Virus record (IMG/VR): IMGVR_UViG_2617270976_000006
Length of the DNA stretch: 9,129 nt
Source: a virus
Taxonomy: Duplodnaviria > Heunggongvirae > Uroviricota > Caudoviricetes
Reading direction: 5' to 3' (one strand)
The translations under genes and the position numbers were made by a program. The notes beneath the pieces were generated by a model. That model was not told the DNA's origin, searched no databases, and saw only the letters and a list, made by a program, of their open reading frames with translations. Shown piece after piece: positions 1-9,129 of the stretch; within the stretch, counting starts at the first letter, position 1; each line of letters begins with the position of its first letter.

Positions 1-2333
1 CCCAGCTCAACGATTGTGCGTACATCGCGATCGTTGTAGTAACGCCACGGGCAGGGGATCCCCTGCCGTTCGTATGAACGGCGCAAAATCGTGTTGTCGA
101 AGTTGGCTCCATTTCCCCAGACCTGAACAAAAAATTCACCGGAGTTTTCGTCGATAAATTCCCGCAATTGTAACAGTGCATCATCTAACGGGATTTCATC
201 GGTCATAATGGCAGATTGCGCTTCGCGTGATTGCTTAAGCCACCATTTAATGGTGTCCCGATCAATGACTCCGCCAGCAGTTTCCAGATCGATAGTCTTA
301 CTAAATTCCGGTCCCATATCTCCGGTTTGCGGATCGAAAAATATTGCACCTATTGAGATGATCGGGGCATCAGGATTTTTTCCCATGGTTTCAAGGTCGA
401 TCATTAGATGGTCACACGTCCTGCTGGTGGATGTGATTTCGTGATGACCGTTCACCTTAATTGGGTGATCTGCCGTCTCGCCAGTTTCATTATCGCTATT
501 GTGATGCTGATTGCCGCCAGTGTTCTCCTTGTGTGGATGTTCAGCGCCTTCCATTTCCTCCGGATCATCTTCCTGAACTTCAACCTGATACTCTTCATCG
601 AATGTTTCTTGGTATGTTGCGTCGCCCATCACCGCGCCACAATCAGGGCAGTTGCCGCCGCCGGTCTGACCGCAGGCGGTGCAGACTTTTTCCACTTCCT
701 GTTGCGCTACTGGTTCAGGCTGTTTCGTTTCTGGCTCGTTTTGTAACGCATTTGGACTGTTTTGTTCCGCTTTTTGGTAGTTCCGTTCCGATTCATGCTG
801 GTTCTGGTTCACAGAATCGCGGGTCTGGAGCCCCTTAACCCATTTCGGATCATTCGGGTCACTAATCCCTTCAACAAATTCACCACGTGATGCAGCAAGC
901 AACTTATCGGCGTCAGGCTGGCTGATATTGGCTGCCTGCATAATTTTGTTTACTTCGTCAGCGGTAACTTTTATCGGCTCTGGTTGTTCTGAATCTTCAG
1001 CGGTATCTACATTTTGCGGTAAGCCCGTGTATGTGCCATTTTTTCGGGCAAAATATTCTTCTTTTGTGATTTCAGTGGCGCCAGCAGCCAGTGCCTTATC
1101 CAGACCAGAGAGTTTGTTTGCGCGACCGTATTTTTCTCCGTCCTTATCTGCGAAGAGGAAATAGAACGGCCCCTCACGCTCTACAGATGGTTCAGCTTCC
1201 GGCGCGGTTTCATTTTTTGGGATATCAGATACCTCAGTTTCCACTGCATCAGTTTGTGTTTCTGATGACTGGAGAACATCAACAGTGCCCAGGTCTGTTT
1301 CTTCATTCTCAAACACGCCCTTTGTCGTCAGGTATTCGCAGATATATTTGTTCAGTGCTACGGGATCTTTGTGAATGTCGATCGGACGCTCACGGACAAG
1401 GCCAAAAATAGTTTGGCGGTCGTAGCGAAGGGCATCAGGCTGTTTGCGCATTGATGCCGAGATACGCTTCCAGTCTTCGCGGTCGTTGTCGATAACTTCT
1501 TTTTTTGCCCAGCGATGGATGCTGCCGTCAATGTTTCCGGCATCCACATCACTAGGCCAGAGAGCGTAGGCCAGTTCGTCATCCAGTGTTTTCCATGTCT
1601 GCTTGTATTCGCGATGAATGGCAGCAATGACCGGGCTGATTTTTCCTGTTGAATTTTCAGTGTACTGTTGATTGGCTCTGGCGCGGGCGAGATCAACAAC
1701 AGACGTGTATTTTCCGGTTTCCTTGCGTTCACCTTCGCGACGTTTTTTCCAGATGCGCATCTCTGCCTGAATTTCGGGCCATTTAGCACCAGGAATACAT
1801 TTATGCTTAACCCACCCAATGGCGTGCAACTTAAGCTCCGGATACATGGCGTTAACTTCTGGCATTTTCATCAACGCTTCAACGATATGTCCGTCGAATG
1901 TTGCCATGTCTTCCTGCAACAATTCCTGTGCGCTAATAACCATATCAACGGTGATGTTTTCACATGTGTCGAACTTAACCATGACAGCGTTCTGTACTTC
2001 AGGGGCCAGCTTGTCAAAAGTGACGTTCATCGGATCGGATTCAGTCTCAACCGGGACAAAAGAAGCAGACTCCTCATCCCAGCGGTTTTCCTGCATATAT
2101 TCAGCATCCCATGAATCGAGGGCAGGGCGGGGTATGCCAGGTTTATCCTCGCAGACAATAAATTTATAAGCGCAGTCCTGAGCAGCCGGATAATGTTCCA
2201 GGAATTGCCAGTGAAATTTTGCTCGAGCACGGCGTTCGTCGCCAGCTTCAATGGCTGTGGCTACAGCCACAGCGCCTTCTTCCCTTGTTGCCAGTTCGTC
2301 AGGAATAGCGGCGCAAATAAAGACTTTACTCAT
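1..2333 (-). CDS. ydfE: Large early-operon prophage protein (YdfE-like) with C-terminal DEDDh-type 3'-5' exonuclease motifs; C-terminus lies beyond the window start (partial)
   Basis: Manual minus-strand translation from ATG at 2333..2331 (MSKVFICAAIPDELATREEG...) stays stop-free in one frame to position 3, at least 777 codons. GAGG Shine-Dalgarno lies 10 nt upstream. Absent from the ORF track only because it has no in-window stop. Near the window start it shows Exo I (HLMIDLETMG) and Exo II (GNGANFDNTIL) motifs; mid-protein has CTACGQTGGGNCPDCG and acidic low-complexity linkers. Name is by position after ydfD and recollection, not verified. Confidence 0.85.
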   Translation of the reverse strand, partial: MSKVFICAAIPDELATREEGAVAVATAIEAGDERRARAKFHWQFLEHYPAAQDCAYKFIVCEDKPGIPRPALDSWDAEYMQENRWDEESASFVPVETESDPMNVTFDKLAPEVQNAVMVKFDTCENITVDMVISAQELLQEDMATFDGHIVEALMKMPEVNAMYPELKLHAIGWVKHKCIPGAKWPEIQAEMRIWKKRREGERKETGKYTSVVDLARARANQQYTENSTGKISPVIAAIHREYKQTWKTLDDELAYALWPSDVDAGNIDGSIHRWAKKEVIDNDREDWKRISASMRKQPDALRYDRQTIFGLVRERPIDIHKDPVALNKYICEYLTTKGVFENEETDLGTVDVLQSSETQTDAVETEVSDIPKNETAPEAEPSVEREGPFYFLFADKDGEKYGRANKLSGLDKALAAGATEITKEEYFARKNGTYTGLPQNVDTAEDSEQPEPIKVTADEVNKIMQAANISQPDADKLLAASRGEFVEGISDPNDPKWVKGLQTRDSVNQNQHESERNYQKAEQNSPNALQNEPETKQPEPVAQQEVEKVCTACGQTGGGNCPDCGAVMGDATYQETFDEEYQVEVQEDDPEEMEGAEHPHKENTGGNQHHNSDNETGETADHPIKVNGHHEITSTSRTCDHLMIDLETMGKNPDAPIISIGAIFFDPQTGDMGPEFSKTIDLETAGGVIDRDTIKWWLKQSREAQSAIMTDEIPLDDALLQLREFIDENSGEFFVQVWGNGANFDNTILRRSYERQGIPCPWRYYNDRDVRTIVEL

Positions 2334-7588: not shown

Positions 7589-8341
7589 ATGAACCTTGAA
7601 GCCTTACCAAAATATTACTCCCCAAAATCTCCAAAATTGAGCGATGACGCTCCAGCGACAGGCACCGGTTGTTTAACAATTACGGATGTAATGGCAGCGC
7701 AGGGGATGGTGCAGTCGAAAGCACCACTTGGGTTGGCCTTATTTCTGGCAAAAGTTGGTGTTCAGGACCCTCAGTTTGCGATTGAAGGCCTGCTAAATTA
7801 CGCGATGGCACTGGATAACCCGACATTGAACAAATTGAGTGAAGAAATCCGGTTACAGATTATTCCTTACCTCGTGAGTTTTGCCTTTGCTGATTACTCC
7901 AGGTCTGCGGCAAGTAAGGCTCGCTGTGAGCATTGTTCAGGTACGGGATTTTATAATGTATTGCGCGAAGTGGTGAAACACTACAGACGCGGGGAATCTG
8001 TAATCAAGGAAGAATGGGTGAAGGAACTATGTCAGCATTGCCATGGTAAGGGCGAAGCCAGCACAGCGTGCAGAGGGTGTAAGGGTAAAGGGATTGTTCT
8101 GGATGAAAAAAGAACCCGGTTTCATGGCGTACCGGTATATAAGATTTGTGGGCGTTGTAATGGAAACCGGTTTAGTCGTTTACCGACCACGCTGGCACGA
8201 CGTCATGTCCAGAAGCTGGTACCAGACCTGACCGATTATCAGTGGTATAAGGGGTATGCGGACGTCATTGGTAAACTGGTAACAAAGTGCTGGCAGGAAG
8301 AAGCATACGCGGAAGCGCAATTGAGGAAGGTGACGAGATAA
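7589..8341 (+). CDS. quuQ: QuuQ, Q-like late-gene antiterminator (250 aa) with multiple CxxC zinc-binding motifs
   Basis: Translation MNLEALPKYYSPKSPKLSDDAPATGTG...AQLRKVTR. GGAG Shine-Dalgarno before the ATG at 7589. The track start at 7559 would overlap ydfU. Motifs CEHCSGTG, CQHCHGKG, CRGCKGKG and CGRCNG are present. Confidence 0.9.
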   Translation: MNLEALPKYYSPKSPKLSDDAPATGTGCLTITDVMAAQGMVQSKAPLGLALFLAKVGVQDPQFAIEGLLNYAMALDNPTLNKLSEEIRLQIIPYLVSFAFADYSRSAASKARCEHCSGTGFYNVLREVVKHYRRGESVIKEEWVKELCQHCHGKGEASTACRGCKGKGIVLDEKRTRFHGVPVYKICGRCNGNRFSRLPTTLARRHVQKLVPDLTDYQWYKGYADVIGKLVTKCWQEEAYAEAQLRKVTR

Positions 8342-8372
8342 ATGATTTTTGCTGAAGATGGCGACATGATGT

Positions 8373-8401
8373 TTGCATTTTTCAAAAAATATGGATAAAA
8401 T
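8373..8401 (+). promoter_or_regulatory. Candidate late promoter (PR' analogue, probable QuuQ target): -35 TTGCAT (8373..8378), 17-nt spacer, -10 TAAAAT (8396..8401)
   Basis: Good sigma70 hexamers about 30 nt after the quuQ stop, followed about 50 nt later by an intrinsic terminator. This is the lambdoid PR'/tR' arrangement. Confidence 0.45.
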
Positions 8402-8446
8402 TTTTTCAACGATGGGCTTTGTATACCCGACGTTAAGAAAAAGTAG

Positions 8447-8477
8447 AAAACCCGCTGATGAGCGGGTTTTGTGCTTT
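8447..8477 (+). terminator. Intrinsic terminator (tR' analogue): 10-bp stem AAAACCCGCT/AGCGGGTTTT, GATG loop, then GTGCTTT
   Basis: Hairpin read directly; the A-tract before and T-tract after suggest it could act in both directions. Confidence 0.6.
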
Positions 8478-8615
8478 AAATGGGGCAATGGTAATGTTGA
8501 ATCTCATCCCGGGACTCATGTCTGTTAACTTATTATTTAGCTGGTGACTTGGTTATTTGCCTGATGTTTAAAATGTTTTCTTCCAGTACAATGTCCCTAA
8601 ACACAATGAGTCTGC

Positions 8616-8638
8616 GGTAATGACTCCAACTTATTGAT
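8616..8638. repeat. IS1 terminal inverted repeat (insB-proximal end)
   Basis: GGTAATGACTCCAACTTATTGAT at the junction with prophage DNA. Confidence 0.85.
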
Positions 8639-9008
8639 AGTGTTTTATGTTCAGATAATGCCCGATGACTTTGTCATGCAGCTCCACCGATTTTGAGAAC
8701 GACAGCGACTTCCGTCCCAGCCGTGCCAGGTGCTGCCTCAGATTCAGGTTATGCCGCTCAATTCGCTGCGTATATCGCTTGCTGATTACGTGCAGCTTTC
8801 CCTTCAGGCGGGATTCATACAGCGGCCAGCCATCCGTCATCCATATCACCACGTCAAAGGGTGACAGCAGGCTCATAAGACGCCCCAGCGTCGCCATAGT
8901 GCGTTCACCGAATACGTGCGCAACAACCGTCTTCCGGAGACTGTCATACGCGTAAAACAGCCAGCGCTGGCGCGATTTAGCCCCGACATAGCCCCACTGT
9001 TCGTCCAT
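8631..9008 (-). CDS. insB: IS1 transposase InsB frame (normally expressed as an InsAB' frameshift fusion); ATG-delimited part shown
   Basis: Track ORF translation [125 protein letters not shown]. Confidence 0.9.
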
Positions 9009-9052
9009 TTCCGCGCAGACGATGACGTCACTGCCCGGCTGTATGCGCGAGG

Positions 9053-9127
9053 TTACCGACTGCGGCCTGAGTTTTTTAAGTGACGTAAAATCGTGTTGAG
9101 GCCAACGCCCATAATGCGGGCTGTTGC
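9053..9127 (-). CDS. insA: IS1 InsA, 3' fragment (N-terminus beyond the window end)
   Basis: Manual minus-strand translation [24 protein letters not shown] then stop at 9055..9053, matching the InsA C-terminus. Confidence 0.85.
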
Positions 9128-9129
9128 CC

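Follow-up and report, generated by a model that had tools for sequence, protein, structure and literature searches.

Late transcription in lambdoid phages is governed by a Q cassette, which comprises the Q gene, the late promoter PR′, a pause element dependent on sigma70 (SDPE), a terminator and the late genes, with Q binding a QBE (Q-binding element) and loading onto the paused transcription complex (PMC9388147). In phage lambda, AACGAT at +1 to +6 acts as a -10-like sequence that is re-bound by sigma70, GGG at +7 to +9 forms a strong discriminator-like element, and the polymerase pauses at +16/+17 (PMC5001585). A -35-like TTGACT next to the lambda pause element helps reposition sigma region 4. 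Here we analyzed a 9,129-nt stretch of viral DNA (IMG/VR record IMGVR_UViG_2617270976_000006, hereafter the window) and find that positions 8365-8477, directly downstream of the antiterminator gene quuQ (ydfT), very probably constitute the late-gene control cassette of prophage Qin, the equivalent of lambda PR′-QBE/SDPE(qut)-tR′. The mechanism is not new; this is the textbook arrangement in a new PR′/SDPE/tR′ cassette, that of the QuuQ clade.

The window is a Qin-type lambdoid Escherichia coli prophage and carries dicB, dicA, dicC, flxA, relBE, hokD, rem, ydfU and quuQ/ydfT. All coordinates are positions in the whole window, on the plus strand unless stated otherwise. Segment 8300-8615 is 100% identical in E. 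coli K-12 MG1655, and K-12 positions were mapped to the window from ydfT, which occupies 1642489..1643241 on the minus strand of NC_000913.3. Positions on U00096.2 were converted to NC_000913.3 with an offset of +1976, which we take to be correct and which agrees with an overall difference of 1977 in length between the two versions.

Organization of the cassette and comparison with lambda PR′

The locus contains the following features.

7589-8341, plus strand: quuQ (ydfT), coding for a 250-aa antiterminator of the lambda Q family; stop codon at 8339-8341
Linker of 31 nt from the quuQ stop to the promoter, plus strand: ends before the -35, as read from the sequence
8365-8372, plus strand: conserved block CATGATGT, directly 5′ of the -35, from alignments and the lambda sequence
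8373-8378, plus strand: -35 hexamer TTGCAT of the PR′ equivalent; TTG is invariant, and the hexamer nearly so, in 19 aligned loci
8379-8395, plus strand: 17-nt spacer TTTTCAAAAAATATGGA, the presumed QBE by the position of the lambda QBE (PMC9388147), with putative binding
8396-8401, plus strand: -10 hexamer TAAAAT
8402-8407, plus strand: 6-nt gap TTTTTC between the -10 and the pause 9-mer
8407-8410, plus strand: transcription start cluster; predicted +1 at A8408, 7 nt after the -10
8408-8416, plus strand: predicted sigma70-dependent pause element AACGATGGG, with -10-like AACGAT (+1 to +6) and discriminator-like GGG (+7 to +9)
8408-8434, plus strand: predicted 5′ stem-loop in the minimum free energy fold; +1 to +4 pairs with +24 to +27, and +6 to +9 with +19 to +22
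8447-8470, plus strand: intrinsic terminator hairpin AAAACCCGCT-gatg-AGCGGGTTTT (tR′ equivalent), with a 10-bp stem, a GC core at 8451-8466 and the loop GATG
8467-8477, plus strand: U-tract UUUUGUGCUUU, with GTGCTTT after the hairpin, up to 8477; mapped RNA 3′ end at C8474
8617-9129, minus strand: insertion sequence IS1, beginning with its right inverted repeat (IRR) and carrying its transposase on the minus strand; extends past the end of the window and lies outside the cassette

The sequence-only reading of this DNA had described a promoter TTGCAT-17-TAAAAT directly after quuQ, followed about 50 nt later by a strong terminator, and had likened the whole to the lambdoid PR′/qut/tR′ arrangement. 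The hexamers lie where that reading placed them, and the hairpin with its U-tract is present at 8447-8477, at a distance of 45 nt from the -10 rather than about 50. Moreover, every sequence-level feature of the lambdoid arrangement is present, namely, a lambda-family Q, the promoter geometry, the pause 9-mer and the terminator. The lambda late promoter reads TTGACT-17-TAAATT-TGACTC-AACGATGGG, and the Qin locus shares with it the geometry of -35, 17-nt spacer, -10 and 6-nt gap as well as AACGATGGG at +1 to +9, identical in sequence and in distance from the -10. Also common to both are a CATGAT upstream of the -35 at the same place, a Q protein of Pfam PF03589, a leader whose 5′ end folds into a similar stem-loop, and an intrinsic terminator (with late genes past it in lambda and in MG1655), together with constitutive production of a short RNA (6S RNA in lambda). 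The two loci differ in the length of the leader (~67 nt in Qin versus 194 nt in lambda), in the -35, which is weaker in Qin (TTGCAT versus TTGACT), and in the spacer, where Qin agrees with the lambda sequence TATTGAATAAAATTGGG at 10 of 17 positions.

As judged from its sequence, QuuQ is a full-length antiterminator of the lambda Q family located directly upstream of the cassette. It matches PF03589 at 3.6e-54, aligns with lambda Q along its full length at 33% identity (BLASTP E 2e-40) and is 94% identical, at equal length, to the Q protein of the active phage SfV. The nearest solved structures are the lambda Q entries 7UBM (4.6e-36) and 4MO1. Unlike lambda Q, QuuQ carries a 48-aa insertion within the zinc-ribbon "arm" (window 7931-8146, residues ~115-186). 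The arm contains four CxxCxGxG-type motifs, including the extra ones contributed by the insertion, and matches the Pfam DnaJ central domain at 1.3e-08.

The late promoters of phages 82 and 21 resemble the Qin locus in having a sigma70-dependent promoter-proximal pause for Q loading, a short leader and a nearby terminator, but their Q proteins belong to unrelated families. In addition, phage 82 has its pause element 9 bp further downstream, the polymerase pausing at +25/+26, and Q21 of phage 21 binds a direct-repeat QBE as a dimer.

By homology with lambda, sigma70 region 2 would re-bind the first nine transcribed bases, AACGATGGG, and RNA polymerase would stall at about +16/+17 (8423/8424). 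QuuQ positioned on the promoter spacer would then load onto the stalled complex, and the modified polymerase would read through the terminator at 8447-8477 into the downstream DNA. Without QuuQ, the cassette would act as a dead-end generator of small RNA. Under this model, the locus would also provide a natural chromosomal sigma70-dependent pause site in K-12, predicted near 1642407 (-) of NC_000913.3.

The short RNA of the cassette is ECS025 of E. coli K-12

Published transcript data from K-12 bear directly on the predicted short RNA. In the Romero 2014 supplement, a class-I transcription start site (TSS) from differential RNA sequencing (dRNA-seq) is listed as RVS_(I)-1640447, with a range of 1640444-1640447 (U00096.2), which maps to window 8407-8410 with the offset given above. 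A start near 8408 had been predicted from the sequence, and this published primary TSS coincides with it. At the other end, the Term-seq data of Adams 2021 (supplementary file 1) contain an "orphan" 3′ end at 1642356 (-) of MG1655, equivalent to window 8474. This end occurs in all three growth-condition sheets, with counts of 103591 in lysogeny broth (LB) at an optical density (OD) of 0.4 and 55368 in LB at OD 2.0.

The Romero 2014 supplement also lists ECS025, with Shinhara 2011 as its source, as a 72-nt RNA of the cspF-ydfT intergenic region at 1640375-1640447 (U00096.2) on the ydfT strand. These coordinates correspond to window 8407-8479 on the same strand. According to Shinhara 2011, ECS025 measured 60 nt by sequencing and gave a Northern band of ~65 nt in both total and low-molecular-weight RNA, and the novel small RNAs (sRNAs) of that study were, as a group, termed constantly expressed. 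The terminated RNA of the Qin cassette and ECS025 are thus the same object. Since the short RNA exists in K-12 and the corresponding stretch of the window is 100% identical, the predicted transcript is real. The sequence-only reading had expected about 60 nt; the RNA exists as foreseen (TSS 8407-8410, 3′ end 8474, Northern band ~65 nt), with a length closer to 67 nt (8408-8474).

These data show that a constitutive sigma70 promoter is active, starting at about A8408, that the terminator is used, with the RNA ending at 8474, and that the product is a discrete and abundant RNA of ~67 nt. In the portions of the literature covered, ECS025 is described only as an intergenic or prophage sRNA with no assigned function, and no passage was found to connect it with quuQ, PR′, a pause element or antitermination. 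The cassette explains both the Northern-validated ECS025 and the "orphan" Term-seq end as the terminated leader of the Qin late promoter.

Conservation of the Q-linked unit

Of 5426 complete E. coli genomes, 1629 carry the region, and its layout is kept in 20 other Q-linked loci, which include active phages (SfV, mEp460, Ayreon and Stx2c converters) and eight other enterobacterial genera. It is also found in phages 2H10, Tritos and HannyBb, in Salmonella phages 118970_sal3 and F1055, and in 15 Stx2c-converting phages. Among species-representative genomes, Q proteins 63-71% identical to QuuQ occur in Mangrovibacter, Kosakonia, Phytobacter, Atlantibacter, Scandinavium and Buttiauxella, and Q proteins 40-42% identical in E. 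coli, Entomohabitans and E. albertii.

Conservation of each segment was expressed as the majority frequency over 19 aligned loci with Q proteins 63-100% identical. The most conserved block of the region is AACGATGGG (0.99), followed by the -35 hexamer (0.91), the spacer and the -10 hexamer (both 0.89), the 3′ end of the Q coding sequence (0.86), positions +10 to +27 beyond the pause element (0.85) and the linker from stop codon to promoter (0.79). The lowest values belong to the stretch that separates the 5′ stem from the terminator, which varies in length (0.54), and to the DNA past the terminator (0.49). The relatives use TAAAAT, TAAGAT, TAGGAT, TAGTAT or TAGCAT as the -10, always keeping T1, A2 and T6, and the pause hexamer appears as AACGAT, AATGAT or AAAGAT, with A2 and T6 in every one. 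Inside the QuuQ clade, 9 of the 17 spacer columns are invariant; the clade with Q proteins of 40-42% identity and lambda retain AAYGATGGG at +1, and their spacers differ. This pattern fits what would be expected if the constant parts were read by host sigma70 and each Q read its own spacer. Likewise, conservation of the spacer inside the clade and its divergence between Q clades fit a role as the QBE.

The terminator is kept as a structure rather than as a sequence. A GC-rich hairpin with a T-run was detected in 21 of 21 loci, the window included, with the stem ending at +50 to +68; the stem occurs in 10 sequence versions, and every one of them pairs, with energies of -10.6 to -16.4 kcal/mol (e.g., CCCGCU/AGCGGG, CCUCGC/GCGGGG, GCCUCGC/GCGGGGC and GACCUCGC/GCGGGGUC). 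RNAalifold applied to a MAFFT alignment of the leaders found no compensatory terminator pairs, because stems of different length (CCCGC versus CCUCGC) left the terminator arms misaligned; hairpins were therefore detected sequence by sequence. A terminator is annotated at the same place in the SfV and Ayreon records. In most active phages, homology to the window stops at 8470-8477, directly past the terminator, and other late modules follow. Because phage homology ends right after the terminator, the Q gene, promoter, pause element and terminator behave as one mosaic unit. The pairs of the 5′ stem-loop are kept in 18-19 of 19 relatives with one-sided changes only, and since its 5′ arm is the invariant pause element, covariation cannot prove this structure.

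The phages with a QuuQ-type Q (SfV, mEp460, Ayreon, 2H10, Tritos, 118970_sal3 and Stx2c phages) all have a Q gene of 753 nt and share the promoter, spacer and pause element, with the terminator in the equivalent place. They differ from Qin in the -10 (TAAGAT or TAGGAT versus TAAAAT), in the stems and loops of the terminator, and in the downstream modules, which consist of a methylase, tRNAs plus stx2, a holin, or cspF/cspB. None of the phage records compared annotates the promoter or the pause element. The comparison defines candidate cis elements for a widespread Q clade that includes active and Stx2c-converting phages.

Several further observations were made in the alignments. The CATGAT upstream of the -35 is conserved across the QuuQ clade, and positions +23 to +27 of the leader, within the 5′ stem-loop, are conserved as CCGTT or ACGTT. 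Two loci look decayed. In Mangrovibacter plantisponsor, a full Q is present and the promoter/pause cassette is absent after it. In the other, from E. coli, Q lacks its N-terminal part and retains only residues 76-250; the pause hexamer there has become AAAGAT, and AAAGATGGG follows Q.

Points against the cassette and alternative explanations

Several observations weigh against a Q-responsive cassette that works as in lambda. The promoter hexamers alone are unremarkable and no better than chance, with 8 of 12 matches as TTGCAT-17-TAAAAT; the scan itself took TTTGCA-18-TAAAAT, with 9 of 12. The U-tract is interrupted (UUUUGUGC), and the -35-like TTGACT adjoining the pause element in lambda is absent from Qin, which has TTTTTC there. 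Because the lambda arm contacts the QBE and sigma region 4 and the 48-aa insertion sits in this arm, QuuQ may differ from lambda Q in the details of loading. Moreover, MG1655 has a second same-strand 3′ end at 1642188 (-), 168 nt past the terminator and antisense to ynfS, seen in stationary phase, in the LB OD 2.0 sheet only; its equivalent falls just past window 8616 and has been displaced by IS1 in the window. This second end suggests incomplete termination without Q, i.e., that the MG1655 terminator may be leaky even when Q is not induced. In the portion searched of the genome-wide sigma70-pause data of Sun 2021 (RNET-seq), there is no entry at the Qin cassette, and the locus was also not found in the searched portions of Ettwiller 2016 (Cappable-seq), Yan 2018 (SMRT-Cappable-seq) and Kim 2012. 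A literature search returned no experiments on QuuQ itself (pause mapping, DNA binding or read-through), no read-through experiment with any QuuQ-type Q and nothing specific on the SfV late promoter.

Given such weak hexamers, a promoter match and a hairpin might simply have come to lie side by side in AT-rich intergenic DNA, and promoter-like sites are indeed not commoner in the window than in shuffled sequences (8 versus 12.0 ± 3.5). However, the window holds a single copy of AACGATGGG, where 0.07 would be expected, and the composite TTGNNN-16..18-TANNNT-5..8-AAHGAT has a single occurrence with both strands searched. The hairpin has a folding energy of -14.8 kcal/mol, and the predicted transcript 8408-8485 reaches -30.4 kcal/mol (z = -4.75), a stability attained by 0 of 200 shuffled sequences. 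The locus stands above chance because of the rarity of the pause 9-mer and its identity with the lambda element at the same offset, together with the layout conserved across genera and the published RNA ends. Mapped 5′ and 3′ ends, the Northern band and conservation refute a chance co-occurrence, to which we give virtually no weight.

A second alternative concerns the hairpin itself, which could be mainly an ordinary gene-end terminator, serving the early/middle quuQ transcript of the plus strand and, from the minus strand, the convergent transcript of cspF-ynfS, with incidental promoter hexamers upstream. A-runs precede the hairpin and T-runs follow it, and in K-12 cspF-ynfS converge on it from ~150 bp. 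Relatives bearing cspF (2H10 and Qin-type) have an A-rich 5′ flank, AAGAAAAAGTAGAAAA, while phages without cspF have a weaker one, GATAAGATTTAAGAA. The hairpin was also the best terminator-like match of the scan, but was reported on the minus strand only; the plus-strand U-run went uncounted because the stem gets extended through A/T pairs, and taking a GC core of 6 bp instead leaves UUUUGUGC as the tail on the plus strand. Against this explanation, the class-I TSS 60 nt upstream of the hairpin and the discrete ~65-nt RNA establish a real promoter. The Term-seq list has no 3′ end at 16423xx on the opposite strand, all three "16423" entries being the same-strand site, and the hairpin is retained in phages without a convergent gene. 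We therefore consider a mere gene-end terminator very unlikely; bidirectional termination may be at most an extra function of the hairpin.

More weight is due to the idea of a stand-alone sRNA gene, in which the ~67-nt ECS025 would be a trans-acting RNA or one that works in cis on the long transcript, and the promoter and terminator would be kept for the sake of the RNA. ECS025 is abundant, and its group is described as constantly expressed in Shinhara 2011. Conservation of +10 to +27 extends beyond the pause element, the 5′ stem-loop recurs in nearly all relatives, and terminated PR′ transcripts such as StxS and IsrK are known regulators (PMC7547250). However, the unit is always found directly behind the Q gene and travels together with it, and conservation peaks in the DNA signal read by sigma70 rather than in an obvious seed region; for these reasons a trans-acting sRNA as the sole role is unlikely. 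Conservation in the leader is lowest from the end of the 5′ stem to the terminator, a stretch of variable length. The 3′ tail UUUUGUGC is short and would presumably be poor as an Hfq-type tail, which we also count against this explanation. No Rfam family was reached at gathering thresholds over the whole window; the isrK model (RF01394) scored 16.6 bits against a cut-off of 50, and the sub-threshold alignments inspected, that of isrK among them, seem driven by the terminator hairpin. Altogether, we judge a stand-alone sRNA gene improbable, and such a role would in any case supplement the cassette function rather than replace it.

Related short RNAs and a possible QuuQ-specific variant

StxS and IsrK (Gifsy-1) are close parallels to ECS025, in that both are short RNAs made in lysogeny by termination just past a late promoter under antitermination control (PMC7547250). 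They differ from the Qin RNA, which has no Rfam family membership, and StxS is further distinguished as a 258-nt precursor that is processed to 74 nt and binds Hfq (PMC7547250). By analogy with these two RNAs, an added regulatory role for ECS025 is possible. In the Romero 2014 supplement, a 67-nt RNA named IS019 is listed at 576438-576505 (U00096.2), in the nmpC-essD intergenic region just upstream of essD in prophage DLP12; it may be a comparable short RNA of the DLP12 late region.

The peculiarities of the Qin cassette can be combined in one further proposal, which we offer as speculative and rather doubtful. QuuQ-type proteins would form a distinct sub-class of the lambda Q family, in which the extra 48 aa turn the arm into a DnaJ-like double zinc finger and Q reads another spacer element (TTCAAAAA...TGG) and loads without the -35-like TTGACT. 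The ECS025 leader, whose conserved 5′ stem-loop overlaps the pause element, would perhaps be regulatory in lysogens.

The Stx2c-converting phages give this question a wider bearing. In the Stx2c phage sequence LC727876.1 (708-5408), a QuuQ-type Q (PF03589 plus the DnaJ finger) is accompanied by the same promoter, pause element and terminator. Past the cassette follow two open reading frames (ORFs), tRNA-Met, tRNA-Arg and, ~2.6 kb downstream, stx2A/stx2B. The strength of Q-PR′ in Stx2c-converting phages is thought to influence toxin output. With this cassette positioned ~2.6 kb upstream of stx2c, a distinct mode of QuuQ loading or a role of the leader RNA, if true, could bear on toxin expression in these phages.

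IS1 insertion and neighboring sequences

The sequence-only reading had the late genes downstream of the cassette interrupted by IS1. This description is imprecise: the IS1 junction (8616/8617) falls in non-coding DNA, 139 bp past the U-tract and ~142 nt past the 3′ end at 8474, and the window stops before IS1 is complete. No late gene is therefore disrupted within the window, where IS1 (8617-9129) is all that follows the cassette. Identity with MG1655 ends at 8615/8616, and IS1 is annotated in strains CEA106S and LR-03. In MG1655 and CEA106S, essD/essQ, rrrQ and rzpQ come after the cspF/cspB morons, and in phage 118970_sal3 a holin follows the cassette. CEA106S carries a simple IS1 insertion one base further on than the window, accompanied by a 9-bp duplication, and every downstream gene is intact. 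In LR-03, IS1 lies at the equivalent of 8548/8549 and abuts gnsB, the segment from cspF through the lysis genes having been deleted. The cassette is intact in the window and in both strains.

The window, CEA106S and LR-03 thus have three distinct IS1 insertion points within ~70 bp past the terminator, and the AT-rich DNA there resembles a hot spot for IS1.

Three ORFs overlapping the cassette were considered and rejected as genes. ORF 8373-8528 would encode 51 aa from a TTG start that lies upstream of the mapped TSS, and it crosses the terminator, beyond which phage homology stops. ORFs 8180-8488 and 8239-8409 lie antisense over the quuQ 3′ end and the cassette.

Elsewhere in the window, in comparison with LR-03, which has the K-12 gene order at this place, ~1 kb with ydfC, ydfB and ydfA is absent between dicB and dicA, at about 2874-2886. 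We take dicF to sit between dicB and dicA in K-12 as well, and the Rfam scan of the window returned no DicF match. The BLAST mapping shows an overlap of 12-13 nt between the dicB and dicA flanks, which suggests that the deletion occurred at a short repeat.

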